Source: an uncultured archaeon
Lineage (GTDB): Archaea; Asgardarchaeota; Thorarchaeia; Thorarchaeales; Thorarchaeaceae
Assembly (NCBI GenBank): GCA_964648855.1
Contig: CAZYLT010000001.1
Location: 342,299-406,298, forward strand
Reading direction: 5' to 3'
DNA length: 64,000 nucleotides
The notes beneath the pieces were generated by a model. That model had not been told where the DNA came from, searched no databases, and was given only the letters and a program-made list of their open reading frames with translations. The position numbers and the translations under genes were made by a program. Positions 4,639 through 18,554 of this stretch are shown here, piece by piece. The first letter of the stretch is position 1. Every line of letters begins with the position of its first letter.

Positions 4639-4646
4639 GTATAAAA
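4639..4646 (+). promoter_or_regulatory. Archaeal TATA box (GTATAAAA) with upstream A-rich BRE-like segment. A GAGGAG Shine-Dalgarno sits at 4677-4682, 8 nt before ATG 4691.
   Basis: The TATA box lies about 48 nt upstream of the radical-SAM gene ATG, and the purine-rich SD is correctly spaced. Both seen directly in sequence. Confidence 0.35.
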
Positions 4647-4690
4647 AGAGAGTCTAAATCCTCAGAGAGCACGTCAGAGGAGTATTGGCA

Positions 4691-5818
4691 ATGGCAAGTG
4701 AGGCGTCTGAAGAGAAAAGAAAGAACCAAAGCAAAGAATCGCCCGAGTATGTTAGGACGAGTCTTGCTGCCGCAATGACCATGAACAAGCTCCCAGGAAA
4801 ATTCTATCGTGATGCAAAACTCTACTGCATCAATCTCCTTTTGACTTATGATGAAGGATGCCATGCAAGATGTGCGTATTGTGGTCTCTCAAACTCTCGA
4901 GAAGTGGATACGGATTGGGTGGACAACAGCTTCATCAGGGTTGACTGGCCAATTTATCCTCTCAACGAAGTGAAAGAGGCACTATCAGATGGAACTTGCC
5001 CGCATGTAGAGAGAGTCTGTGTCTCGATGATAACACTAGGTTGTGCTCGAGAGGACTGTTTTAAGGTCGTTTCAGAGTTAAGAGAGGTAATCCCGCAGAT
5101 TTCGGTCTTAATCACACCGACCATTTTGAATGAGAATTGGCTGATTAGAGCCAAGGAGGCTGGAGCAGACAAGGTGGGTATCGCAGTAGATGCTGCCACT
5201 CCAGAACTATTTGAGAAGCTGCGGGGAAACGGAGTCAACGGCCCCCACAAGTGGAAGAAATATTGGCAAACCGTTGAGGAAGCAGTTGAAGTATTTGGTA
5301 AAGAGAATGTTGGAATTCATTTGATAGTTGGAGTTGGAGAGACCGAAAAGGAGATGGTTGATGCAATACAACGTGCCCAAGACCTTGGCGCTGACACCCA
5401 TCTCTTTTCTTTTTTCCCAGAAGAGGGTTCAGATATGCAAGACGATCCACAGCCACCTCTGGGTACGTACCGTCGGATTCAGGCTGCACGATATCTGATA
5501 AATAACGAATTAACCTCTGCAAAGAGAATGCAATTCAATAATCAAGGTCAGATTACAGATTTTGGCATCAGCAAGACCGAGTACAATCAAATGATGTCTG
5601 AGGGAAAGGCATTCATGACCTCGGGTTGCAACGGAACAACCATGGATAATGCATGCAATCGACCCTTTGGAAATTGCACCCCCTATCAGGCCTATATTGG
5701 ACACTGGAGGAACTTCCCGCTATCCCCTGATAAGGACGATTTGAAAAAGATTGCAGAACAGATACGAGACTACTCATTGAGCTATGAGATGGACGATGAC
5801 TATTTTGAAGATGAATGA
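4691..5818 (+). CDS. Radical SAM protein, biotin-synthase-related; candidate archaeal two-component lipoyl synthase subunit (LipS1/LipS2 type)
   Basis: CHARCAYCGL CxxxCxxC radical-SAM cluster motif. There is a second Cys-rich region (CNGTTMDNACNRPFGNC). It sits directly upstream of, and overlapping, a second radical SAM gene and two LplA genes. Track start 4685 is TTG; ATG at 4691. Confidence 0.6.
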   Translation: MASEASEEKRKNQSKESPEYVRTSLAAAMTMNKLPGKFYRDAKLYCINLLLTYDEGCHARCAYCGLSNSREVDTDWVDNSFIRVDWPIYPLNEVKEALSDGTCPHVERVCVSMITLGCAREDCFKVVSELREVIPQISVLITPTILNENWLIRAKEAGADKVGIAVDAATPELFEKLRGNGVNGPHKWKKYWQTVEEAVEVFGKENVGIHLIVGVGETEKEMVDAIQRAQDLGADTHLFSFFPEEGSDMQDDPQPPLGTYRRIQAARYLINNELTSAKRMQFNNQGQITDFGISKTEYNQMMSEGKAFMTSGCNGTTMDNACNRPFGNCTPYQAYIGHWRNFPLSPDKDDLKKIAEQIRDYSLSYEMDDDYFEDE

Positions 5819-6806
5819 GAGTCTTCTTGAACAGTGCTTCGAAGCAGAGGAGTATGATCTTAAGCCACTCTTTGAGATGGCTTTTGAATTGTCAAGAAAG
5901 AAGTTCTCAGAGGACATTATCTTCTATTCTCCAGGAATGATTCATTATCAGACCGAATTTCATGAGGCAACTGACCCATTTAGGTTTCCAAGCATCTCAA
6001 TAACTGGTAATTCTTGTGCCATTGGCTGCGAGCATTGTAGAGGAAGGCTTCTAGAAAGCATGATACATGCCACTACTCCAGAGGATCTCTGGAGAATCTG
6101 TGAAGAAATTGTCAGAAAGGGAGGCTCAGGGTGTCTGATAAGCGGTGGTTCAACTTCGCGAGGCAACACACCCTTGGAGCAGTTCATACCAATAATAGAG
6201 AGAGTAAAATCCGACTTAGACCTCAATGTCGTTGTCCACACAGGAATAGTATATCCCGAGATTGCTGAGGAACTTGGTCGAGCGGGAATAGATGGAGCCA
6301 TGCTTGATATTATTGGCTCACACCAAACCTTGGAAGAGATTTACCACCTCGATATGCCAGTGAGCATATTTGAGGACTCCATGCGACTTCTTAATGAGTA
6401 TAATGTTCCAATGATGCCACATATTATTGCTGGGCTATACCATGGGAAGCTCAATGGTGAGGACCAGGCAATCCGAATGATTGGAAAATATAATCCGGAT
6501 TCAATAGTGATTGTTGCCTTTATGCCGCTCGATGACACCCCAATGGAAAAAACGAATCCAGCGACACCCATGGATATAGCGAGGGTGGTACTTGGAGCGC
6601 GGTTGTACATTCAGGACCGCCCAGTCGTTCTTGGGTGTGCACGACCTCTTGGTCTACATCGTAGAAGCCTAGACCGACTTGCTATCGATGCGGGAGTGAA
6701 TGCCATAGCCTACCCTACTGAAGAAGGATACTCCTATGCAAAGAAGAGAAACCTATCAATCGGTTTATCGGACCAATGTTGTTCCTTGATAACTAAAAAA
6801 CTGTGA
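5784..6806 (+). CDS. Radical SAM protein, second candidate lipoyl synthase subunit (LipS1/LipS2 type)
   Basis: CAIGCEHC CxxxCxxC motif. It overlaps the upstream radical SAM gene by 35 nt at ATG 5784, or by 8 nt if the ATG at 5811 is used. That ATG is embedded in gATGAATGA, a classic translational-coupling overlap. 340 aa. Confidence 0.6.
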   Translation: MRWTMTILKMNESLLEQCFEAEEYDLKPLFEMAFELSRKKFSEDIIFYSPGMIHYQTEFHEATDPFRFPSISITGNSCAIGCEHCRGRLLESMIHATTPEDLWRICEEIVRKGGSGCLISGGSTSRGNTPLEQFIPIIERVKSDLDLNVVVHTGIVYPEIAEELGRAGIDGAMLDIIGSHQTLEEIYHLDMPVSIFEDSMRLLNEYNVPMMPHIIAGLYHGKLNGEDQAIRMIGKYNPDSIVIVAFMPLDDTPMEKTNPATPMDIARVVLGARLYIQDRPVVLGCARPLGLHRRSLDRLAIDAGVNAIAYPTEEGYSYAKKRNLSIGLSDQCCSLITKKL

Positions 6807-6810
6807 TAGC

Positions 6811-8439
6811 ATGAACAGAAATGACTTCGACAAATGGCGTCTCATTGACACAGGCATTTTGACAGGTGCCCAAAATATGGCCCTTGACGACGTCATCCTC
6901 GAGTGCCATGCGTACGAGAATACTCCGAATACCATAAGATTCCTTCAGTTCAATCCATCCACTGCATTGGTAGGATATCACCAATCGATTGAACAAGAAA
7001 TCAGAATCGATTTTTGTAAACACCATGGCATAGATATAAACCGACGACTTACGGGAGGAGGAGCCATCTTGTTTACGCCGACATGTCTTGGTTGGGAAGT
7101 CTTCGCAGATAAGTCGGTGTCAAGGATTAGAGATTTGAGAACTGACCTCGATAAACTTGCCCAATTAATCTGCGAAGGAACAGTAAGAGGACTTCAAGAA
7201 TTGGGAATAGAAGCAGAGTTCAGACCCAAGAATGATATCGAGGTCAATGGACGAAAAATCTCTGGGACTGGGGGGACTGAACGAGAGGATTCGTTCATGT
7301 ACCAGGGAACATTACTCGTAGATTTTGATGTCGAGCTGATGCTAAGAGCGCTTAGAATTCCTGTAGAGAAACTGCAGGATAAGGAAATTGAAAGCGTGAA
7401 AGAGAGAGTGACATGTCTGAAGTGGGAGTTAGGCCGGGTTCCACCGTTAGCGGATATTAAGCGAGCGATAGCTGATGGATTTCAGGAGGTTCTTGACATT
7501 CAACTGCAGGACAGGGGATTGTATCCAATTGAGTCGGAAATGTATAATCAAAAACTCCCCGAATTCGAATCTGAAGATTGGATAAACATGGTGAGAAAGC
7601 CTCTTGACTGGGCGGGAACCGTAAGCACGATGCGAAAGACCCCAGGAGGATTGATCAGGGCGTCTCTTTCAATAGATATCCCAGGCAACTATATTGTGAG
7701 TTCCTTCATTACAGGAGATTTCCAGGTATTTCCCCAGAGAGCTATCATGGACTTGGAGTCAACGTTAAAGAATTCAGACGCAAGCTATGCATCCATCAGA
7801 AACAACATACTGGACTTTTTCGAGTCTTCAAGAACCAGAATTTTCGGAATACCTCCTGAAATCGTAGCAGATACGATAATTGAAGCAGTGAAGAAAAAGT
7901 CCTTCGTCAACTACGGCTTTACATTGGATGACTCAAATCAATTGATGACCGTGAACTTCTTGCCTGATGAGTTGGAACAACAGCATTTTGATTTCGTGTT
8001 GTTGCCGTATTGTGCTAAACTCCTAGGCTGCGAGTATCGGTTTGTCGAAGGATGTTCAATGTGTGGCGGATGTTCTACCAACGATGTCTATAAACAGATT
8101 ACCGAGCTGAATGTCCCCGTTAGAACAATCCAGAACTTCGAAGATCTTGTGGAGACAGTTCACGAGTTTAAAGAAAAGGGGGCGCGTGGCTACGTTGGTT
8201 CTTGCTGTGATGCCTTCTACAGTAAGCATTACCAGGATTTCGTTGACATGGGCGTACCTGCTCTTCTAGTTGACGTAGATGATTCGACATGTTATGACTT
8301 AGGAGAGGAAGAAAAGGCATACGAAGGAACTTTCGAGGGACAGACGGTGCTGAAAACTGACCTAATATTGAAGGTTATCAATACGCTAACAAATATGGGA
8401 ATACTCCACAGTGGGGTGGTTCAACATCGCTCAGTATGA
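6811..8439 (+). CDS. lplA: Lipoate-protein ligase A family enzyme with a ~170-aa C-terminal Cys-rich extension
   Basis: BPL/LPL catalytic-domain motifs RRLTGGGAILF (RRxxGGGAV) and the lysine in GRKISGTGG. 542 aa against ~340 for canonical LplA. The extension contains CxxxxC, CxxCxxC and CC clusters (CAKLLGCEYRFVEGCSMCGGC ... GSCCDAF). Confidence 0.7.
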   Translation: MNRNDFDKWRLIDTGILTGAQNMALDDVILECHAYENTPNTIRFLQFNPSTALVGYHQSIEQEIRIDFCKHHGIDINRRLTGGGAILFTPTCLGWEVFADKSVSRIRDLRTDLDKLAQLICEGTVRGLQELGIEAEFRPKNDIEVNGRKISGTGGTEREDSFMYQGTLLVDFDVELMLRALRIPVEKLQDKEIESVKERVTCLKWELGRVPPLADIKRAIADGFQEVLDIQLQDRGLYPIESEMYNQKLPEFESEDWINMVRKPLDWAGTVSTMRKTPGGLIRASLSIDIPGNYIVSSFITGDFQVFPQRAIMDLESTLKNSDASYASIRNNILDFFESSRTRIFGIPPEIVADTIIEAVKKKSFVNYGFTLDDSNQLMTVNFLPDELEQQHFDFVLLPYCAKLLGCEYRFVEGCSMCGGCSTNDVYKQITELNVPVRTIQNFEDLVETVHEFKEKGARGYVGSCCDAFYSKHYQDFVDMGVPALLVDVDDSTCYDLGEEEKAYEGTFEGQTVLKTDLILKVINTLTNMGILHSGVVQHRSV

Positions 8440-9478
8440 TGTCGTCGTAGTTGGAGGAGGCCCCTCCGGCGCAGTTACTTCGCTTCTTCTGGCAAAAGAT
8501 GGCATGAAGGTCCTCCTACTTGAAAAGGGACATGAAAAAAGGCACAAAGCCTGTGGAGGAGTATTGCCTTCTGTTGCCCCTGATACCATTGAAGACATAA
8601 TAGACTCGGAAATTCCTGAGGAGGTTTTCGAAAATCCGAGAGAATTGGGTCTCTACTACGTTCCTCCAAGCGGGCCTAATAGTGGAGGTAGAGTTCGAAA
8701 CTACACCATTCATAATATAAATCGAACCCGTTTCGATTTTTGGTTACGCGAGTTAGCTGAAGAGGCAGAAGTGGAAATCCGATACAACACAAAAGCCACT
8801 TCAGTTTCAATAAATGAGAAGTCAACTAGGGTATCAATTCAGGGGCAGAAGGCAACTATCGAAACGCCTATTCTGGTTGGTGCAGATGGAGTAAGGTCGA
8901 CTGTTCGTAAATCCCTTTTTTCCGACACCAATGTTCCAATCATGGTCGTGGGCCAAGAGAAATGGATTGCGAAAGGAGATTTTGAAGACTGCTTTTACGG
9001 ATTCTTTCATGACAAATATTCAGTAGCTTATGCATACCTGATACCCAAACAAGATAGTATCCTCATTGGTCTTGGTGTGGAACCAAACAGAAAGCCAAGT
9101 TATGCGGAATCGCTAGATAGCTTTCGTTCAATGCTAATTGATGAGTTCTCGTTTGCCCCTGAAAAGATTGTTCGAAGGGAAAGTTGGGCAATTCCATTTG
9201 GATATTTCATGCCAGGTAAAGAGAATGCGATACTGGTCGGTGATGCTGCAGGGCTCTGTAATCCATTGTCTGGAGAGGGGATTAGATTGGCAATTGAGTC
9301 AGCGGAGTCAGCAGCCAATATCATTGCACATGCAGATCAATCTAAAATCATAGAAGATTATCAGCATGAGGTGAAAGGACTAGCTGATATGATTAATGAC
9401 CTCAATGATTTTGTAAGAGGGCTTGATAACGAAAAACGCGAACAATTTGTCTCAGAGGAACTATCAAGAGGATTCTGA
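8411..9478 (+). CDS. FAD-dependent oxidoreductase of the geranylgeranyl reductase (GGR) family
   Basis: N-terminal Rossmann DVVVVGGGPSGA, the GGR-type conserved Cys motif KACGGVLP, and a C-terminal GD motif LVGDAAGLCNPLSGEGI. GTG start overlaps the upstream LplA by 29 nt. Confidence 0.7.
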   Translation: MGWFNIAQYDVVVVGGGPSGAVTSLLLAKDGMKVLLLEKGHEKRHKACGGVLPSVAPDTIEDIIDSEIPEEVFENPRELGLYYVPPSGPNSGGRVRNYTIHNINRTRFDFWLRELAEEAEVEIRYNTKATSVSINEKSTRVSIQGQKATIETPILVGADGVRSTVRKSLFSDTNVPIMVVGQEKWIAKGDFEDCFYGFFHDKYSVAYAYLIPKQDSILIGLGVEPNRKPSYAESLDSFRSMLIDEFSFAPEKIVRRESWAIPFGYFMPGKENAILVGDAAGLCNPLSGEGIRLAIESAESAANIIAHADQSKIIEDYQHEVKGLADMINDLNDFVRGLDNEKREQFVSEELSRGF

Positions 9479-9526
9479 TAGCAAGAGATATAGTTGCCAA
9501 TCGCACACATTCTTTTTGTGTCCACT

Positions 9527-10618
9527 ATGAAAGAGCGATGGCGATTACTTGATTTGGGCGCTATTGAACCGCTTGAAACACAAATTATCTATGATATGGT
9601 TGCTCAAGGGATTACAGAGGGAGAATCACAGAATACAATCATCATTTGCTGGCCCGCTGAGCCCTTAGTTAGTGTAGGCTATTTCCAAGAGATTGAGAAG
9701 GATATAGACCTTGCATTTTGCCGGAAAAACGATATTGTGGTGACACGCCGTGTAATCGGGGGTGGAGGAGTCTACCTAGATGATGGACAGCTATTCTACC
9801 AATTAATTGGGCGAGTTGATAGTCCAACTACGCCAAAGCCCATTGATGCCTATTATCGGAAATTTCTCAAAGCACCAGTTCAAGCATATAGGAATCTTGG
9901 CATTGAAGCTGAATTTCGACCAGTTAATGATATTCAGGTCAATGAAAAGAAAATATCAGGAAATGGAGCAGGAGATGTTGGTGATGCTCGCATTCTCACC
10001 GGCAACATAATTTTAGATTTTGACTTCGAAATGATGGTGAAGGTTCTTCGAGTACCAAGTGAGAAATTTCGGGATAAAGTATACAAGAGCCTCAAAGACC
10101 GGCTGTCAACAATTCTACTTGAAACTGGATCAATGCCACAAAAAGACGAGATTAAAACCGACCTAATCAGGCTTTACGAGGAAACCCTTGACATTGAACT
10201 TGAGAAGGGCAAGTTATCTTCATGGGAAAAGAGCAGGATGTCAGAGCTCCGCTCCAAATACAAGTCAAATGAGTGGCTTCACTGGAGGAGTGGAGGCAGA
10301 CTTGATGCTCGAACTGTTAGAATATCCGCAACAGCCTCTGTTGGTACAGCGAGCCATAAGGCCGAAGGCGGGTTGATTCGGGTGACTGCAGAGGAGATAG
10401 AAAATGAGATCAATGAAATTGTCATTAGTGGAGATTTCTTCATGCTTCCGTCCACAGCAATCGGAGAACTTGAGAACAACCTGAAGGGCTCTACTCTTTC
10501 TAGAGACGCGATACTGGAAAGAATTAAGGAAAGCTATACTCAGCTGGATATTGATTCGCCAGGAGTCAAGCCAGAAGATATTGCTGATGCGATTGAGTTG
10601 GCCTTCGAACAAAAGTAA
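9527..10618 (+). CDS. lplA: Lipoate-protein ligase A (second LplA-family paralog, catalytic plus C-terminal accessory domain)
   Basis: RRVIGGGGVYL and NEKKISGNGAG lysine motif. ~364 aa from the ATG at 9527; the track start at 9494 is TTG. Confidence 0.75.
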   Translation: MKERWRLLDLGAIEPLETQIIYDMVAQGITEGESQNTIIICWPAEPLVSVGYFQEIEKDIDLAFCRKNDIVVTRRVIGGGGVYLDDGQLFYQLIGRVDSPTTPKPIDAYYRKFLKAPVQAYRNLGIEAEFRPVNDIQVNEKKISGNGAGDVGDARILTGNIILDFDFEMMVKVLRVPSEKFRDKVYKSLKDRLSTILLETGSMPQKDEIKTDLIRLYEETLDIELEKGKLSSWEKSRMSELRSKYKSNEWLHWRSGGRLDARTVRISATASVGTASHKAEGGLIRVTAEEIENEINEIVISGDFFMLPSTAIGELENNLKGSTLSRDAILERIKESYTQLDIDSPGVKPEDIADAIELAFEQK

Positions 10619-10675
10619 AGCGAAGGACCAATGAGGAATTTAACAAATCGCGTAAAGCCTTGAGGTGAACCAATC

Positions 10676-11761
10676 ATGCCGTCGGATGTTAGCTTTTCTG
10701 CGATTGCGCCCGGAAGAGTCTGCATCTTTGGAGAACACAGTGACTACTTGGGACTAGATGTGATTCCCGCAGCAATTAGCATGCATATCGAGATTTCTTG
10801 TTCACCACGCGATGATCGTCTAATGGATATCAGATATTCGGATTTGGGAACAAAGGATACGTTCGAGATTGATACAAAAATCGATTATGCCCATGAGAGG
10901 GACTATGTTAGAAGTGCATTTAATGTACTTAGAAGGCAGGGACTTACTCTCTCTTCAGGATGGTCAATGTATGTTAGAGGAAACATACCAATTGCAGGAG
11001 GACTATCCAGCTCGTCAGCATTAGCTGTCGCATCAGTCCTGGCATATTCTAGAATGGCTGGAGAATCCCTGAATCCCAAAGCATTAGCCGAGCTTGCATT
11101 CCAGGCTGAGGTCAAGGAATTTGGAGAAAGCGGAGGTATGATGGATCATTATGCATCTGCGTACGGTGGAATCATACACTTGACTACAAAACCTAAGATA
11201 GAGGTGACCAGAATCCCTACATCCATTAGTGGGTTCGTCATTGGTGACTCGGGGGAGGAGAAGAAAGATACCGTGGGAGATCTGGAAGAAATCCGCAATT
11301 TGGCTGAGAAGGGATACAACAAACTAGCACAGTACGTAGACAATTTCGACCAAACCAAAACAGCCCTTGAGAAGGTTCAACCATTCCTGAAACGGCTTTC
11401 CTCAAGAGAGCAGACAGTGGTGGAAACGACCATCAAAAATAGGGACTTAACACAGCGTGCATATGATACTCTAAAGTCTAGTAACTACGAACCTGAAGAG
11501 TTAGGCTCAATGATTGATCAACATCATATCTATTTGCGTGATGGTCTGAAGCGATCGACCAAGAAAATAGAAAAGATGATACGAGCTGCAAAGAAAGCAG
11601 GAGCTTTGGGCTGCAAAATCAACGGAAGCGGTGGAGGAGGAACGATGCTAGCATATTGTCCAGGAAAGGTGGATGTTGTTTCATCAGCTATAGAGAGAGC
11701 AGGGGGGACACCATATGTGGTCAGTATTGGACAGGGCGCCCACCTGAGCGTCCAAGATTGA
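10676..11761 (+). CDS. GHMP-family sugar/small-molecule kinase (galactokinase-like signature)
   Basis: N-terminal APGRVCIFGEHSDYLG (galactokinase-type GRxNxxGEHxDY), GHMP ATP-binding loop PIAGGLSSSSALAVA, and a C-terminal GSGGGG. Confidence 0.7.
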   Translation: MPSDVSFSAIAPGRVCIFGEHSDYLGLDVIPAAISMHIEISCSPRDDRLMDIRYSDLGTKDTFEIDTKIDYAHERDYVRSAFNVLRRQGLTLSSGWSMYVRGNIPIAGGLSSSSALAVASVLAYSRMAGESLNPKALAELAFQAEVKEFGESGGMMDHYASAYGGIIHLTTKPKIEVTRIPTSISGFVIGDSGEEKKDTVGDLEEIRNLAEKGYNKLAQYVDNFDQTKTALEKVQPFLKRLSSREQTVVETTIKNRDLTQRAYDTLKSSNYEPEELGSMIDQHHIYLRDGLKRSTKKIEKMIRAAKKAGALGCKINGSGGGGTMLAYCPGKVDVVSSAIERAGGTPYVVSIGQGAHLSVQD

Positions 11762-11766
11762 AGAGG

Positions 11767-13329
11767 TTAGTCGCTCGATGCAAGATCTTCCATTCTGCGT
11801 TCAACTATGCCAAGTATTTCGTCTTTGAGATTCTCGCTCTCTTCAATGAGCTCCTCAACTTCCTTTCGAATGTTCTTGACGAATTTCTCGTCCTTAATAT
11901 TGTCAAGATTTATTCTGACATTGAGAGATGCTGCCTTGATTGCGGCTGAGAGTGCATATGCAGCGCCGCCAGCATCAGTTATGGCATTGATATTGCCCTT
12001 CTCTGCAGCAACTTTTGCATGAGTGAGTGCCTCATATGATTGCTTCATGGTTTCTAATGGAATCTCAGCAGCATGAATTGTTGCTTCCTCTACGGCTTCT
12101 TCTTTCGTTTGTTTTTCCTCTTCATTTCCTTCAGGAAGCTTATAAGTTTCCATCACTTTTTCAAAGGCTTCAGAGTCCTTCTCAACCATGTCCAGCAGAA
12201 CACCCCTGTTTGTTTCACAGGCATGTCGATGATCAAGCATCTCCTTTTTGATTGCAGCAAATTTTCTTCCAGTCAATGAGAGACCTGTGACCATGCATAC
12301 AAGAGCCGCGCCATAAGAGCCCATAACTGCAGCAACACTTCCTCCACCAGGAGTTGCTCTGGCTCGTCGCACCTGATTCCCGAATTCGATTAAGGACATT
12401 TCAGTGAACGACTTCTCAGTGGGCTCTTCAGCACCACCAAGATAATACAAATCGAGAATCATTGATTCATCGAGATTCTCTGGTTGCAGATAGTACTTGA
12501 GAGCGTCAATCAAAGCGAAGAGAGGTACCATTCCAATAATCTCGGTTTCAACGACAGTGGCACCAAAACGTTTCGCTTCGTTCCTCACAACTTCAAGAAC
12601 CTGATGTATCTTGGTTCTCTTGGGATGGGTGAGATTGCATGAAACCTGAACCATTCCCTTATCCGGCAAGTCCAGGCCAATACCTTGCACATACACAAAG
12701 CCACCAGTGGTTGCTCTAACTGCATTCGCACAGACCTTTGCTACCTCAACATTAGTTGTATTAAGGTTGAAATTGATTGCAATCAGGAAGAATCGTGCTC
12801 CGGTAGCAGTGGCACCAGCTGTTGGATTGATTTTGTTAGGGCCATAATCAGGAGTCCTACTCTCATCCTCTCCGATGGTTTCACGAAGCCCTTCAAATTC
12901 TCCTTGACGAATATTAGGCAATTCTTCTCGTTCAGGACGCGTTGCGGATTTCTCATAGAGGTATACGGGTACATCATGCTTCTCAGAATATTCCTTGGCG
13001 AATTCTTTTGACAGCTCTATACACTCGCCAATGGTTACTCCGTGTAGCGGAATGAAAGGAACAACATCAACTGCGCCCATTCGAGGGTGAGCTCCCTCGT
13101 GTTTGCTCATGTCAATTCGTTCTACTGCAACATCCGCTGCCTTCAGAGCTGCCTGTTTAACCTTCTGTGGTTCTCCTATGAATGTGAATACCGACCTGTT
13201 GTGATCAGGGTCATATTCAACATTAAGAAGACGAACACCATCAACGCTCTTGATGGCATCAGCCAATTCATCAATTACCTCTTTTCGACGACCCTCGCTG
13301 AAATTGGGTACACATTCGACAACCTTCAT
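11767..13329 (-). CDS. ftcD: Bifunctional glutamate formimidoyltransferase / formimidoyl-THF cyclodeaminase
   Basis: N-terminus MKVVECVPNFSEGR is the hallmark start of the formiminotransferase domain. The C-terminal ~200 aa are helical, consistent with a cyclodeaminase domain. ~520 aa. Track start 13341 is TTG; ATG at 13329. Confidence 0.75.
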   Translation of the reverse strand: MKVVECVPNFSEGRRKEVIDELADAIKSVDGVRLLNVEYDPDHNRSVFTFIGEPQKVKQAALKAADVAVERIDMSKHEGAHPRMGAVDVVPFIPLHGVTIGECIELSKEFAKEYSEKHDVPVYLYEKSATRPEREELPNIRQGEFEGLRETIGEDESRTPDYGPNKINPTAGATATGARFFLIAINFNLNTTNVEVAKVCANAVRATTGGFVYVQGIGLDLPDKGMVQVSCNLTHPKRTKIHQVLEVVRNEAKRFGATVVETEIIGMVPLFALIDALKYYLQPENLDESMILDLYYLGGAEEPTEKSFTEMSLIEFGNQVRRARATPGGGSVAAVMGSYGAALVCMVTGLSLTGRKFAAIKKEMLDHRHACETNRGVLLDMVEKDSEAFEKVMETYKLPEGNEEEKQTKEEAVEEATIHAAEIPLETMKQSYEALTHAKVAAEKGNINAITDAGGAAYALSAAIKAASLNVRINLDNIKDEKFVKNIRKEVEELIEESENLKDEILGIVERRMEDLASSD

Positions 13330-13468
13330 GCGTGTCACCAAGCCCGTCGGATAAGTTCAAGCAAAAAAGCATTTGGGAATCGGGGGTTTAGTCGAAAAAT
13401 GATGTCAGATAGGCAAAAAAGAGACGCGAATTGCACATCTGGTCATTTCTTGTTCCAAGCAGCTAGGG

Positions 13469-14404
13469 TTAGCTTGTATATCCACCATAATCTATGGCGT
13501 CGACAATGAAGACATTGGTCTGGTTCTGCAGATACGTATAGGCTGCAAGTACATTTCTGAGTAACATGGCAATAGTCATTGGCCCCACACCACCAGGTAC
13601 CGGAGTAATGTAAGATGCTTTCTCCTTAACAGTTTCAAAATCGACATCACCCTTTGGCGTAGCCACATCTATGACAATTGCACCCTCTTTAACCATCTCT
13701 TCAGTGATAAAATACGGGTCGTCATTGGATTCCCGAAGTCCAACCGCAGTGACAAGAATATCTGCTTGCTTAGTCATACTTGAGATGTCCTTGGTCTTCG
13801 AATGGCAAACGGAAACCGTAATGTCTCTGTCAAGCAACATGAAAATTAGTGGTTTGCCGACTATAGTAGATCGGTTAATGATGACCGCGTCTTTTCCTTT
13901 CAAATCAACCGGTAGTAAATCCAGCATCGTGACAATACCTTGAGGAGTCGCAGCACTCAAGAATTCATTCCCATGGAATAACCGATATATGTTCCTCGGG
14001 GAAAATCCATCAACATCTTTACCAGGCGATATTGCATCAATAACCTCCTCTTCATCGATATGACTTGGCAGAGGCAACTGTACGAGTATACCATGAACAT
14101 CACGGTCTTGATTGAGTTCCTGTATCAGGTCGATAAGCTCCTCTTCGGTCGTGTTCCCCGGTAAATCATGGGTTTCGGAAAGAATACCGGCCTTTTCACA
14201 GGCTCGCTGTTTCATACGCACATACATTTTGGACCCTGGGTCCTCACCAACAATAATGGCGACTAGCTTTGGCGGTGTTCCGTGTACCTCAGTCAGATGC
14301 TGAACTTCTTCCTTGATGTGCTGTCGTATCTTTTTTGCCAGAGTCTTGCCGTCAATGACTTTTCCTTCTACGAATTCCTCAAGTGCAATGTCGTATTCGC
14401 TCAT
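13469..14404 (-). CDS. folD: Bifunctional 5,10-methylene-THF dehydrogenase / 5,10-methenyl-THF cyclohydrolase
   Basis: VIDGKTLAKKIRQHIKEEVQ ... PKLVAIIVGEDPGSKMYVRMKQRACEKAGI ... HGILVQLPLP ... GGVGPMT are all FolD hallmarks. 311 aa. Confidence 0.85.
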   Translation of the reverse strand: MSEYDIALEEFVEGKVIDGKTLAKKIRQHIKEEVQHLTEVHGTPPKLVAIIVGEDPGSKMYVRMKQRACEKAGILSETHDLPGNTTEEELIDLIQELNQDRDVHGILVQLPLPSHIDEEEVIDAISPGKDVDGFSPRNIYRLFHGNEFLSAATPQGIVTMLDLLPVDLKGKDAVIINRSTIVGKPLIFMLLDRDITVSVCHSKTKDISSMTKQADILVTAVGLRESNDDPYFITEEMVKEGAIVIDVATPKGDVDFETVKEKASYITPVPGGVGPMTIAMLLRNVLAAYTYLQNQTNVFIVDAIDYGGYTS

Positions 14405-14415
14405 GTTGAATCCTC

Positions 14416-16011
14416 CTAAAATACGCCTGATATGTTGCCATCCTCATCTATGTCCATCTCTTCTGCCGCGGGATCAGATGGGAGTCCAGGCATCAACATG
14501 ACATCTCCAGTGTACACAATAACAAAACCAGCACCAGCGCTGACATCAGCTCCACGTACGGTTAAGACGAAATCTTCCGGTCGCCCCTTCTTGCGAGGAT
14601 CATCACTGAGGCTGAATTGTGTCTTCGCCATGCATATTGGGAGCTCACCATGCCCACGTTTCTTCAACGACCATAGTTCTCCATTGGCATTATCTATGTA
14701 CCTGACACCCTTTGCTCCATAGATACTCTTGGCAACCTTCTCAATTTTCACTTTGAGGTCTTCATCGACATCATAGGTGTAATTCACTTCGTTTCGAGTT
14801 CCTGTAATATCAAGTACTGCCTTCGCCATATCCTTTCCACCCTCGCTACCCTTGGCAAATACCTCTGAAACCTCCATCCTCCATCCCTTTTTCTCGCAGA
14901 ATTCCCGTACTTCTGCAATCTCCCCATCAGTATCATCAGGGAATCGGTTCACAGCAATTGCAAATGAAGGACCAAAGTTTTGGATGTTCTCTGCATGTTT
15001 CGCCAGATTTGGTAAGCCCTTCTTGAGGTCATCATCACCCTGCTCTTTCAGGGCTCTTATGCTGGTGATGATCACAACTCCGTCGACATTAAGGTTGCCA
15101 GCACGAGTGACGATGTTCATAAATTTCTCAGCACCGAGATCTGCTCCAAATCCTGCCTCGACTACCACATAGTCAAATAGACGCAGTGCAATGTCAATCG
15201 ACATTATTGAGTTCGTTCCATGGGCTATGTTTGCAAAGGGGCCGATGTGAATGAGGGCTGGTGTTCCCTCAGATGTCTGTACCAGATTCGGCTTTAGGGC
15301 ATCCTTCAACAAGACAGCCATTGCACCGTTCGCATTGATATCTTTGGCATATACTTCATTGAGGTCGTAATCTCGAGAGAGCAAAATATTGCCAAGCCGC
15401 TCCTTTAGGTCGGTATAGCTATTTGCCAAAGCCATTATTGCCATGATTTCGGAGGCAGCTGTAATTACATAGCTATCCTCTCTTGGAAACCCATTGTCCT
15501 TTCCGCCAAGGCCGACAACGACTTTTCTTAACGCCCGGTCATTCATGTCTATCGTTCTTGTCCAGTAGACTCTTCGTGGATCAATGCCTGCTTCATTCCC
15601 TTTGTTCACATGATTATCCAGCATTGCAGACAGAAGGTTGTGTGCTGCGGATATAGCTGGAAAATCCCCGGTGAATAGGAGGTTAATCTTCTCAAAAGGA
15701 TGAACTTCTGATTTACCACCGCCAGCGGCACCGCCCTTGATTCCAAAAACGGGACCCAGTGATGGTTCACGAAGTGTCACCACTGCGCTCTTCCCGAGAG
15801 CATTGAGCGACATAGACAAGCCTATAGAGTTTGTAGTCTTACCCTCTCCCGCGGAGGTCGGAGTGGTGGCAGTTACAAGAATCAGTTTTCCTTTCCGTTC
15901 TCCAAGCTCCTTCCGAATATTGAGATTGATTTTGGCCATGTGTTTTCCATAGGGTTCGAGATACTTTTCAGGAATTCCTGCCTCTTCTGCGACTTCAGTA
16001 ATGGGTTTCAT
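14416..16011 (-). CDS. fhs: Formate--tetrahydrofolate ligase (formyl-THF synthetase)
   Basis: PTSAGEGKTT P-loop variant typical of Fhs, plus GIKGGAAGGG. ~530 aa. The likely start is the ATG at 16011 (MKPITEVAEEAGI); the track start at 16113 is TTG. Confidence 0.85.
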   Translation of the reverse strand: MKPITEVAEEAGIPEKYLEPYGKHMAKINLNIRKELGERKGKLILVTATTPTSAGEGKTTNSIGLSMSLNALGKSAVVTLREPSLGPVFGIKGGAAGGGKSEVHPFEKINLLFTGDFPAISAAHNLLSAMLDNHVNKGNEAGIDPRRVYWTRTIDMNDRALRKVVVGLGGKDNGFPREDSYVITAASEIMAIMALANSYTDLKERLGNILLSRDYDLNEVYAKDINANGAMAVLLKDALKPNLVQTSEGTPALIHIGPFANIAHGTNSIMSIDIALRLFDYVVVEAGFGADLGAEKFMNIVTRAGNLNVDGVVIITSIRALKEQGDDDLKKGLPNLAKHAENIQNFGPSFAIAVNRFPDDTDGEIAEVREFCEKKGWRMEVSEVFAKGSEGGKDMAKAVLDITGTRNEVNYTYDVDEDLKVKIEKVAKSIYGAKGVRYIDNANGELWSLKKRGHGELPICMAKTQFSLSDDPRKKGRPEDFVLTVRGADVSAGAGFVIVYTGDVMLMPGLPSDPAAEEMDIDEDGNISGVF

Positions 16012-16295
16012 TTTTCCTACACCAGTGAAAGTAAACTTTTGATTAGTTGTTCCAATCAGTGCAAGTATTGACTGATAAAATGCACCGTATGGCTGTAGAG
16101 GCGGTTTGGTCAATCATGGTTGTGTCAGAAATGCACTCTTTTACAAAAGGTCTTGGCAATTATTACTGAAAAAAAGATGAGGCAGGGTGTTTATCCGCCT
16201 ATTGGGCTGAGAAATATGAATAGGCTTCCTCTCGAGGCACTGCCAGATGCATTGCCAGATGAAATTGATGTCGAAAAATATGTGATTTGCACGTA

Positions 16296-16621: not shown

Positions 16622-17380
16622 TTAGCTTTCTTCAATCCTTATGGGCTGACCAACGGACAGTCGAAGCTCCTGAACAGCACTTGCATTCTTTGCGGCAATC
16701 TCGAGGGTATCGTAGCTGCCAGTGACCAAGAAGAGACCTTCGTCAGGGCCCTCGGAATACGTCGGATACCAATTCAGATCCCACTTCAAGTCAGAGGTTT
16801 CAATCCTGTATTCCTTGGCATTTGCATGGGGAATATTGGTGATGATGTTTCCAAATCTATCAATCCTCACTATCATGCCATCGCGGTCATGCAGAGGAAA
16901 CTCCAATTTCACACTTAATTCTGATTTGAATCCTCCAAGTACCTGACCTGCCTGACCACGACCCATATACCCTGCGGCTCTAGCAAATACATCTCGACCA
17001 TGAAACGTTCTTGACGCATTATCTTCAATTACTAGTGTGGAAACACTCTTTATTCCGTCCTGTTTTACCGCTGGATACATCAGACCATTATCAGGCCCAA
17101 TGAAAGAGTAATTCTTCGTTCTCACATAGATAGGGTCGCGTCCTGTTCCAACTCCCGGGTCAATTACACAGACAAAGATAGTATTCCGCGGAAACTGTGC
17201 GAAAGCCTGTAACAAGACCCAAGCACCCTCACAAATTGACTGCGGTCGAATCGAGTGTGTTAGGTCAACAATTCTAGAACTAGGACTCAAAGAGATGATG
17301 ACACCCTTCATTATCCCAACATATTCAGATTCTCCGAAGTCAGTCAAAAGCACAACAAGTGGAGGGTTCCTCATAGCCAT
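16622..17380 (-). CDS. S-adenosyl-L-methionine hydroxide adenosyltransferase family protein (DUF62 / SAM hydrolase, fluorinase-like fold)
   Basis: N-terminal LVVLLTDFGESEYVG and the DPGVGT region are characteristic of the DUF62 SAM-cleaving family. ~252 aa from the ATG at 17380; the track start is GTG. Confidence 0.7.
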   Translation of the reverse strand: MAMRNPPLVVLLTDFGESEYVGIMKGVIISLSPSSRIVDLTHSIRPQSICEGAWVLLQAFAQFPRNTIFVCVIDPGVGTGRDPIYVRTKNYSFIGPDNGLMYPAVKQDGIKSVSTLVIEDNASRTFHGRDVFARAAGYMGRGQAGQVLGGFKSELSVKLEFPLHDRDGMIVRIDRFGNIITNIPHANAKEYRIETSDLKWDLNWYPTYSEGPDEGLFLVTGSYDTLEIAAKNASAVQELRLSVGQPIRIEES

Positions 17381-17396
17381 GGCGCTCACCCGCTTT

Positions 17397-18554
17397 CTAT
17401 TCGATTTTTACTAATCTTATTTCATTGTAATCTGTCAAGACACGAATATAGCCTCTCAACATTTCATCCACACTACTATCTCCGGTGTCAACCTTAAGTG
17501 TCCCACCCTCAATGCCCTTGAGCTTTGAAGGCGTGCTCATTACAATGATGTCATCTCGTTCGACTTTCTCAATTATTTTGGGACTGATTTGCTGATTACC
17601 CCTACCAAATAACATCCCTTGATGTCCTATGGGTGACACAATGATTTTGGTCTTGCTGAAGTCTTCCACCAAGTCTAGTATCTGGTCTTCATTGAGATCG
17701 TTATGAACCTCTCCGTCTTTGTACAGGTCGACCCCTAACGTTGTCTTTTCTATATCAAGTAGGTCTGCCACACTCTTTACGGTGGTTCCCGGACCGAGTA
17801 CATAGGTCCCATACTCATCCATGTTTTCAACAATGTATCGTGCAATTGCCTCCTGAGCTTCTCTCTCATCCACTGTTTCGGGGCTGGCTTGCTTGGCACC
17901 TTGAAAGCGTGCAGGAACTGATGGCCCTTTCATATAGCCGTAGAGCCGAATTTCCAGTTTATCATTCCGGAAGGCTTCTTCATCAATATCCATTATTTCG
18001 AATTCTGTTTCGCCCGTCTGCCCCTCCTCAATCAGACGAATGACCTCTGCAGCGTCGCGAGGATTCAGAACAAAAATAGCGCTATACATCTTGACGCCAG
18101 CTGGAATACCAATAACCAAGAGGTCCTCAAGACCATACTCTTTGATTGCATCTAAGATATCTCTGGCAGTACCGTCGCCACCAACAAAAGCAATTATCTC
18201 AACGCCTGCATCAGCCAATGCCTTCACGCATCGCTTAGTATCTTCAGCAGTGGTTTCATCGGAGATGTCCACGTCTATTGTTTCGAAGGGAATATTCTCA
18301 TTCTTGCATTCATTGCCCCCCATATCACCAGGACAGGCAGTCAAGGTGGGGTCATGTTTATTGTCATCGAAAAGGGGAGAAAGAGCATTGAGAAAGTCCT
18401 GTGCTCGGTTTGGAGACACCGGCTCTGCGCCCAATTCTCTTGCCGTATCTACGACTCCGTCTGTTCCCTTAAGACCAACACGACCGCCCATCCCAGCAAT
18501 AGGATTCACTATGAAACCAATGTGCAACAATGTCAATTCATCCCTATGTAACAT
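17397..18554 (-). CDS. ATP-NAD kinase-like / polyphosphate-or-ATP kinase family protein (COG3199-like)
   Basis: IVNPIAGMGG and the FVGGDGTARD GGDGT motif of the NAD-kinase/diacylglycerol-kinase fold. 385 aa with a C-terminal extension. It ends 8 nt from the SAM hydrolase gene, so they are probably an operon. Confidence 0.55.
   Translation of the reverse strand: MLHRDELTLLHIGFIVNPIAGMGGRVGLKGTDGVVDTARELGAEPVSPNRAQDFLNALSPLFDDNKHDPTLTACPGDMGGNECKNENIPFETIDVDISDETTAEDTKRCVKALADAGVEIIAFVGGDGTARDILDAIKEYGLEDLLVIGIPAGVKMYSAIFVLNPRDAAEVIRLIEEGQTGETEFEIMDIDEEAFRNDKLEIRLYGYMKGPSVPARFQGAKQASPETVDEREAQEAIARYIVENMDEYGTYVLGPGTTVKSVADLLDIEKTTLGVDLYKDGEVHNDLNEDQILDLVEDFSKTKIIVSPIGHQGMLFGRGNQQISPKIIEKVERDDIIVMSTPSKLKGIEGGTLKVDTGDSSVDEMLRGYIRVLTDYNEIRLVKIE

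Follow-up and report, generated by a model that had tools for sequence, protein, structure and literature searches.

A flavoprotein of the geranylgeranyl reductase (GGR) superfamily, encoded amongst lipoate-assembly (lip) genes in an uncultured Thorarchaeaceae archaeon, belongs to a discrete, lip-specific clade. Its gene lies at positions 8411-9478 of the window, a stretch of 64,000 nucleotides (nt) from GenBank assembly GCA_964648855.1 (contig CAZYLT010000001.1, positions 342,299 to 406,298 of the forward strand). Our analysis suggests with considerable assurance a dedicated role of the protein in the assembly of lipoyl proteins. Its specific job may be to supply electrons to the lipoyl synthase LipS1/LipS2, an assignment that we hold only tentatively.

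A GGR-fold protein outside the lipid reductases

The gene begins at GTG 8411, the sole in-frame start 5′ of the first Rossmann strand, which starts at residue 9-10. A database protein (P0001) matches the translation exactly in sequence and length, and close homologues carry Thorarchaeota source names. The GGR hallmarks named in an earlier note on this DNA (GxGxxG, a conserved ACGG cysteine motif and LVGDAAG) are all present, as GGGPSG (residues 15-20), K-A-C-G-G (46-50) and LVGDAAG (275-281), and are joined by RTRFD (105-109) and YAYLIP (207-212). The 29-nt overlap with the upstream ligase gene, whose open reading frame (ORF) ends at 8439, and the 48-nt gap between the stop at 9478 and ATG 9527 of a second ligase gene are likewise as that note gave them. 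Its assignment to the GGR family also holds: the NCBIfam superfamily model TIGR02032 (GG-red-SF) is matched over profile positions 1-297 of 297 with 176.8 bits (cut-off 158.8, E = 7.6e-52), far from anything that chance would give.

None of the subfamily models was matched above its cut-off. Scores were 123.9 bits for BchP/ChlP (TIGR02023, cut-off 343.3), 61.4 bits for ChlP (cut-off 505.3) and 64.4 bits for MenJ (cut-off 700). The second-best NCBIfam model was that of Escherichia coli CbrA (PRK11445/NF008519), at 134.5 bits against a cut-off of 303. CbrA, a GGR-like protein of colicin M resistance, is close in length (354 residues) and ~28% identical, but falls in another clade of our tree and has no lipoate context.

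Structural comparison places the protein within the p-hydroxybenzoate hydroxylase (PHBH)/GGR fold, given its GxGxxG and GDAAG motifs and fold matches at TM-scores of 0.82-0.84. The AlphaFold2 (AF2) model, for which 22 homologues were used, reaches a pLDDT of 91, and its top PDB matches are archaeal lipid GGRs from Thermoplasma (Ta0516, 3oz2) and Sulfolobus (3atq/4op*), at ~20% identity. A profile of the clade also returned 3oz2 as its top PDB match (E = 1.5e-27), in an alignment that covers the flavin-proximal cysteine, RxxFD, the YxWxFP-type loop and GDAAG. Cys48 and R105-x-x-F108-D109 align with the cysteine and RDKFD of the Thermoplasma enzyme and are 95-100% conserved within the clade. The YxWxFP loop itself is kept as Y207-A-Y209-L-I211-P, with both defining aromatics replaced. 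From these motifs and the fold, the protein is predicted to bind flavin adenine dinucleotide (FAD).

These structural matches are what an ordinary membrane-lipid (DGGGPL) GGR would give if it stood beside lipoate genes by chance, yet that explanation is effectively refuted. With the DGGGPL-reductase equivalog NF041080 the protein reaches only 67.3 bits where 580 are required, and so falls outside that group, as the earlier note had predicted. At 355 residues it is 40-100 residues shorter than the solved archaeal GGRs (397-453 residues), from which it differs further in Trp → Tyr209, Phe → Ile211, a PPSG insertion, Cys283, Arg292 and its lipoate-gene context. It belongs to a separate clade, set off by both the search scores and the tree described below. 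Its synteny with lip genes, in 40 of 41 loci, extends to bacteria that lack archaeal lipids.

A further match, amongst the top hits by both sequence and fold, is chain C of PDB 7koe (FixC/EtfX, 23% identity). FixC is a GGR/PHBH-fold FAD protein paired with a dedicated iron-sulfur (Fe-S) partner, the ferredoxin FixX, much as we propose here. It is, however, the quinone reductase of an electron-bifurcating complex and lacks both the clade motifs and the lip context.

A discrete clade with changes at the presumed active site

Searched exhaustively with HMMER, 1.84 billion representatives yielded 12,825 matches at E < 1e-3 and only 46 at E < 1e-30. Full-length scores step down from 179 to 127 bits, and no match lies between. 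In a neighbor-joining tree of 149 sequences, the window protein likewise falls in a clade distinct from CbrA, BchP and most GGR-like proteins.

Residue counts over 41 clade members and 104 non-clade GGR-like representatives identified several positions that mark the clade. Tyr occupies position 209 in 41/41 members and in 2/104 outsiders (2%), 89 of which carry Trp there; at position 211, Ile or Val stands in place of Phe. Cys283, within GDAAG-L-C-N-P, is found in 34/41 members and in none of the 104 others, and Arg292 in 39/41 members. The remaining marks are the PPSG insertion (85-88), Asn284, Glu296 and a C-terminal R-E-E-F-V motif. Cys48 is invariant in the clade (41/41) and universal outside it too. 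Residues 209, 283 and 292 probably sit near the presumed flavin site. The clade-specific residues (Trp → Tyr209, Cys283 and Arg292) appear to be new.

Conserved synteny with lipoate genes

Upstream of the flavoprotein gene in the window lie two radical-SAM (S-adenosylmethionine) genes and a lipoate:protein ligase, Lpl(AB), whose C-terminal part is a DUF116 domain (Table 1). The top NCBIfam model for the first radical-SAM gene is LipS2 (NF053743, 218.9 bits, cut-off 270) and for the second LipS1 (NF053742, 209.4 bits, cut-off 230). Since both fall below their equivalog cut-offs, this DUF116/LipT-linked pair appears to be a divergent LipS subgroup. LipS2-like and LipS1-like genes were each found in 44 related loci.

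A single scan of 185,579 species genomes, using only two peptide motifs from the flavoprotein, yielded 55 loci, the neighbors of which were checked by tblastn with the neighboring genes of the window. Of the 41 loci whose upstream flank exceeded 4 kb, 40 carry all of LipS2-like, LipS1-like, Lpl and DUF116, arranged as LipS2-like, LipS1-like, Lpl(AB)::DUF116, flavoprotein; DUF116 is immediately 5′ of the flavoprotein gene in 48 of 49 loci. These loci come from Thor-, Loki-, Heimdall- and Baldrarchaeota, Bathyarchaeia, Caldarchaeales, Terraquivivens, Poseidoniia, Chloroflexota/Dehalococcoidia and Desulfosarcina. The co-occurrence with LipS1/LipS2 that the earlier note anticipated thus reaches well beyond one genome. 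That note held that its proposal would fall if the protein grouped with the lipid GGRs and had lip neighbors in this genome only; we found neither.

The tie to lip genes also holds in remoter members of the clade. In Odinarchaeia, a LipS2-like gene stops 4 nt before the flavoprotein gene and no ligase is nearby. At locus L065, an Lpl(AB)::DUF116 gene overlaps it. In Altiarchaeales (locus L064, 5105-8041), the clade member lies, divergently oriented, beside split lplA (248 residues) and lplB (87 residues) genes, and a PyrK-like protein (NAD_binding_1 and DHODB_Fe-S_bind domains) adjoins this group. By its domain content, this putative FAD/[2Fe-2S] protein would take the place of DUF116 there.

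The association with lip genes is clade-specific: none lies near three sister-clade proteins (P0250, P0171 and P0168) or near the basal P0142. P0171 instead lies in a conserved cluster of unrelated context (L061/L062, 7001-8092) with short-chain dehydrogenase, biotin carboxylase and carboxyltransferase genes, together with a PEP-utilising enzyme and a thiolase/ACP-synthase-III-like pair.

Beyond Thorarchaeota, further genes often flank the module. These encode GcvH-like carrier proteins (17 copies in 10 loci, often two or three each), HdrD/GlcF-like proteins with Fer4 and two CCG domains (19 copies in 11 loci), GlcD-like FAD oxidases (6 loci) and OsmC-like proteins (8 loci). Loci with such flanks are L025, L028, L031-L034, L037, L039, L041, L045, L052 and L065. 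Together these genes resemble a maturation set devoted to a redox system that relies on lipoyl carriers and is so far undescribed, parallel to the sHdr-LbpA system of sulfur oxidisers. Genes for lipoyl carriers, CCG proteins, GlcD-like proteins and OsmC were looked for throughout the 64-kb window, and none was found.

The ligase-DUF116 fusion is the closest genetic partner

Pfam annotation of the ligase ORF gave LplA-B_cat at 9e-46 and DUF116 at 27.4 bits (cut-off 25). The LplB model NF053749 matches residues 276-359 with 29.8 bits, under its cut-off of 65, and PF10437 (Lip_prot_lig_C) is precomputed for homologous ligase::DUF116 fusions. The Lpl plus DUF116 architecture recurs in at least 120 database clusters. 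DUF116 alone, as a homologue query, returned only 3 matches; the full fusion was therefore used.

Alignment of the window sequence with those of 49 loci (50 sequences) revealed eight cysteines conserved at 92-100%: 401, 407, 415, 418, 421, 465, 466 and 494. Their spacing, C401-x5-C-x7-C-x2-C-x2-C421 followed by C465-C466 and C494, suggests that DUF116 binds a metal. In the AF2 model of the fusion (pLDDT 84), DUF116 forms an α/β domain of low confidence only in its cysteine loops, as would be typical of a cofactor site modeled empty. With the PyrK-like protein of Altiarchaeales, this cysteine pattern suggests that some Fe-S electron carrier is a recurrent companion of the flavoprotein. A PDB sequence search found no solved relative of DUF116. 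A literature search on DUF116 returned mostly papers on DUF1162 (VPS13) and nothing tying the domain to lipoate.

The two genes are also tightly coupled. In all 37 evaluable loci, the distance between the stop codon of the ligase::DUF116 gene and the Asp10 codon of the flavoprotein (at 8438 in the window) is within -10 to +24 nt, and the genes therefore overlap or abut everywhere. This overlap or abutment with an eight-cysteine DUF116 ligase appears to be new. On a 3.8-kb metagenomic contig, the C-terminal part of DUF116 reads into the flavoprotein without a stop (P0095, 488 residues), either as a natural DUF116-flavoprotein fusion or as a frameshift artefact.

Relation to the published LipT

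The earlier note treated the lipoate association of this flavoprotein as newly noticed; it has in fact been published. LipT was named by Tanabe et al. (2023, PLoS Biol; PMC10332631) from lipS1-slpl(AB)-lipT-lipS2 clusters, and such lip gene clusters were first noted by Cao et al. (2018; PMC6067878). Like the window protein, LipT is an FAD-type oxidoreductase encoded amongst lipS1, lipS2 and lpl(AB), and it co-occurs with LipS1/LipS2 (PMC10332631). Both properties are seen here, as a GGR-like gene within a lipS1/lipS2/lpl(AB) cluster and as co-occurrence across genomes (40 of 41 loci). Differences from the published account are the DUF116 domain on the ligase here, the gene order (lipS2-lipS1-lpl(AB)::DUF116-lipT in the window) and a sulfur-oxidation (sHdr) context that the window lacks. 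The LipT paper contains no occurrence of DUF116 (PMC10332631), nor did we find one in the LipS1/LipS2 papers that we read.

The phyla scored for LipS1/S2 plus LipT in S4 Table are Asgard (10%), Altiarchaeota, Thermoproteota, Thermoplasmatota, Desulfobacterota (75 genomes) and Chloroflexota (PMC10332631). They coincide with the phyla of our clade. LipS1/S2 are reported in 91% of lipT-bearing bacterial genomes and in 22% of archaeal ones, and S3 Table scores LipT as 1 for several Thorarchaeota species (PMC10332631). The published hidden Markov model (HMS-S-S) nonetheless detects our clade patchily. Archaeoglobi score 1 without LipS (S3 Table, PMC10332631), so the model also matches other GGR paralogues, and it is neither sensitive nor specific for this clade. 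Our tblastn searches against plasmids, seeking bacterial LipT, returned only BchP and CbrA for the flavoprotein and only MSMEG_0568 radical-SAM genes for the LipS2-like protein. The LipT-lip association and the electron-donor hypothesis are thus already in print, and the window holds no new kind of system.

Proposed electron supply and its alternatives

In the scheme that we tentatively favor, the ligase would octanoylate (or lipoylate) the target lysine of a carrier protein, and the LipS2-like and LipS1-like radical-SAM enzymes would insert sulfur at C8 and C6, at a cost of one low-potential electron per SAM cleavage. The GGR-fold protein, with FAD bound, would be the reductase of this lipoyl-assembly module. 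Its FAD would exchange electrons with an Fe-S partner, namely the eight-cysteine DUF116 on the ligase or, in Altiarchaeales, the PyrK-like protein. The partner would pass them to the radical-SAM clusters for reductive SAM cleavage in LipS2 and LipS1. In this scheme, we infer which partners make contact, which way the electrons flow and what accepts them. LipS1/S2 do depend on an added reductant in vitro, which can be dithionite or ferredoxin/FNR/NADPH (PMC9585515). The option of reducing an Fe-S partner, raised by the earlier note, agrees with the published LipT hypothesis (PMC10332631); the other options of that note, action on an octanoyl or lipoyl intermediate or on the dithiolane, may also apply. 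The flavodoxin/ferredoxin reductase systems that serve other radical-SAM enzymes would be functional analogues with the same proposed job and an unrelated fold.

Several points weigh against electron supply as the role. Proteins of the GGR fold carry no distinct NAD(P)H domain, and the potential of the two-electron FAD couple is usually too high to reduce a radical-SAM cluster directly. The closest gene link of the flavoprotein is to the ligase::DUF116 fusion, not to the synthase genes, and at the Altiarchaeales locus neither DUF116 nor a LipS gene was found within 7 kb. The protein also keeps Cys48, RxxFD and Y-x-Y-x-I-P, residues of substrate reduction in lipid GGRs, which are not obviously needed by a pure electron shuttle. 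The published proposal that LipT donates electrons to LipS1/S2 is itself worded "possibly" (PMC10332631), and later papers merely repeat the word. LipT occurs in only ~17% of archaeal LipS1/S2 genomes (PMC10332631), and Thermococcus LipS1/S2 are active without it (PMC9585515), so LipT is not a general requirement of the synthase. One Thorarchaeota species, SHMX01 sp008080745, is scored LipT = 0 in S3 Table, yet its locus (L023) carries the gene. Lastly, gene context and shared phyla are what make the window protein a putative LipT; the members handled experimentally are bacterial, from Thioalkalivibrio and Hyphomicrobium.

The retained reduction residues and the coupling to the ligase both speak for a substrate-level reductase, although we regard this as an unlikely role. 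Here the reduced FAD, fed by the Fe-S partner, would reduce an acyl-chain bond in a substrate of the ligase, for instance an unsaturated C8 acid to octanoate in archaea without ACP-based fatty-acid synthesis, or in a protein-bound intermediate. The whole GGR frame is retained (Cys48 in 41/41, R105-x-x-F-D, Y207-x-Y209-x-I-P, GDAAG), and Tyr209, Asn284, Arg292, Glu296 and PPSG cluster at the presumed active site, as they might for a changed substrate. Some lipid GGRs draw electrons from a dedicated ferredoxin, a role that an Fe-S or PyrK-like partner would fit. Against it, Cys48 and RxxFD are found in essentially all 104 non-clade representatives and so do not discriminate, and the Odinarchaeia gene follows a LipS2-like gene with no ligase nearby. 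We know of no candidate unsaturated substrate. The source of octanoate in archaea has been called unresolved, which leaves room for such a step, but most archaea with LipS1/S2 lack the flavoprotein (PMC10332631).

Cys283, by contrast with the universal Cys48, is a second cysteine peculiar to the clade. It would suit an enzyme that acts on the lipoate dithiolane, whether the lipoate is free or attached to protein, and that with its Fe-S partner could replace dihydrolipoyl dehydrogenase (E3) in E3-less anaerobes. We consider this lipoyl/dihydrolipoyl redox role quite improbable. S3 Table offers a pattern in its favor: nearly all Thor- and Sifarchaeia have GcvH, E2 and LbpA-like proteins and almost never E3 (DHDL = 0), whereas Lokiarchaeia have LipM, LipS1/S2 and E3 but no LipT (PMC10332631). 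The Altiarchaeales gene points the same way: it keeps company with lplA-lplB and a PyrK-like NAD(P)H/FAD/[2Fe-2S] subunit, and LipS is absent from its vicinity. However, the E3 pattern tracks lineage and is phylogenetically confounded, the LipT scores of the table are unreliable for this clade, and Cys283 is missing in 7 of the 41 members. Poseidoniia and Desulfobacterota, both with clade representatives, normally have E3. Where carrier genes adjoin the cluster, the HdrD-like CCG proteins are likelier disulfide reductases.

A broader possibility, which we rate as a minority prospect, is that the flavoprotein and the DUF116 of the ligase form a two-part redox enzyme (FAD plus a cysteine-ligated metal cluster), coupled to the ligase and performing chemistry on the cofactor or its precursor. 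It might reduce an unsaturated C8 precursor, or its Cys48/Cys283 pair might act on the dithiolane.

The operon and its surroundings

Six same-strand genes span 4685-11761, with overlaps or gaps of at most 57 nt. The only long spacer upstream is a 124-nt divergent intergenic region holding a TATAAAA element, and GAGGAG stands just 5′ of ATG 4691. Because the genes are packed so closely behind this single spacer, co-transcription of the cluster is very likely, as the earlier note proposed for the flavoprotein and lipoate genes. A scan for sigma-70 promoters and terminators gave counts equal to those in shuffled sequence, the sigma-70 model being uninformative for an archaeon.

Table 1. Features of the lip cluster and the convergent folate block, in window coordinates
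Feature	Position	Strand	Remarks
TATAAAA, archaeal TATA-box-like	4641..4647	+	candidate sole promoter of the cluster, read from the sequence
Radical-SAM gene A, LipS2-like	4685..5818	+	Pfam Radical_SAM; probable real start ATG 4691
Radical-SAM gene B, LipS1-like	5784..6806	+	overlaps gene A by 35 nt
Lpl(AB) lipoate:protein ligase with C-terminal DUF116	6811..8439	+	DUF116 at 7921-8436, residues 371-542
LipT-type GGR-superfamily FAD protein	8411..9478	+	355 residues; FAD predicted; overlaps ligase gene by 29 nt
Second Lpl(AB) lipoate:protein ligase, lacking a DUF116 domain	9527..10618	+	Pfam LplA-B_cat 3.5e-35, Lip_prot_lig_C
GHMP-family kinase	10676..11761	+	GHMP_kinases_N and _C; 57 nt 3′ of preceding gene
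Formiminotransferase-cyclodeaminase	11767-13341	-	
311-residue ORF, putative FolD-like dehydrogenase/cyclohydrolase	13469-14404	-	assigned from its translation
565-residue ORF, putative formate-tetrahydrofolate ligase	14416-16113	-	assigned from its translation

The second ligase, which the mechanical ORF list starts at TTG 9494, adjoins the cluster only in some Thorarchaeota loci (L001-3, L005, L007, L009, L021 and L023). The GHMP kinase reaches the cut-off of neither the mevalonate kinase model nor the galactokinase model. It is kept directly 3′ of the lip cluster in 11 loci, all of Thorarchaeota type, and its membership in the lipoate module is uncertain. S5 Table hints at extra lip loci elsewhere in Thorarchaeota genomes (PMC10332631). 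A one-carbon/folate gene block on the minus strand (11767-16113) converges on the cluster; farther out come genes for a SAM hydroxide adenosyltransferase (16622-17389) and for NAD kinase (17397-18554).

Implications for archaeal lipoate assembly

Glycine cleavage and the 2-oxoacid dehydrogenases cannot work without lipoate, and many archaea, the Asgard relatives of eukaryotes among them, have LipS1/LipS2 as their main lipoyl synthase. With the LipT association already described, the chief remaining interest lies in the universal coupling to DUF116 and the clade-specific changes at the active site. If the two-part redox enzyme exists, DUF116 would gain a function and the GGR fold a new reaction; in the dithiolane version, E3-less anaerobes would possess a non-canonical dihydrolipoyl oxidoreductase. 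Whatever the reaction, the enzymology of the flavoprotein would still be new. Overall, the lip-specific clade, its coupling to the DUF116 ligase and the carrier, CCG and OsmC genes that flank it in many lineages provide concrete partners for the biochemistry of LipT and DUF116.

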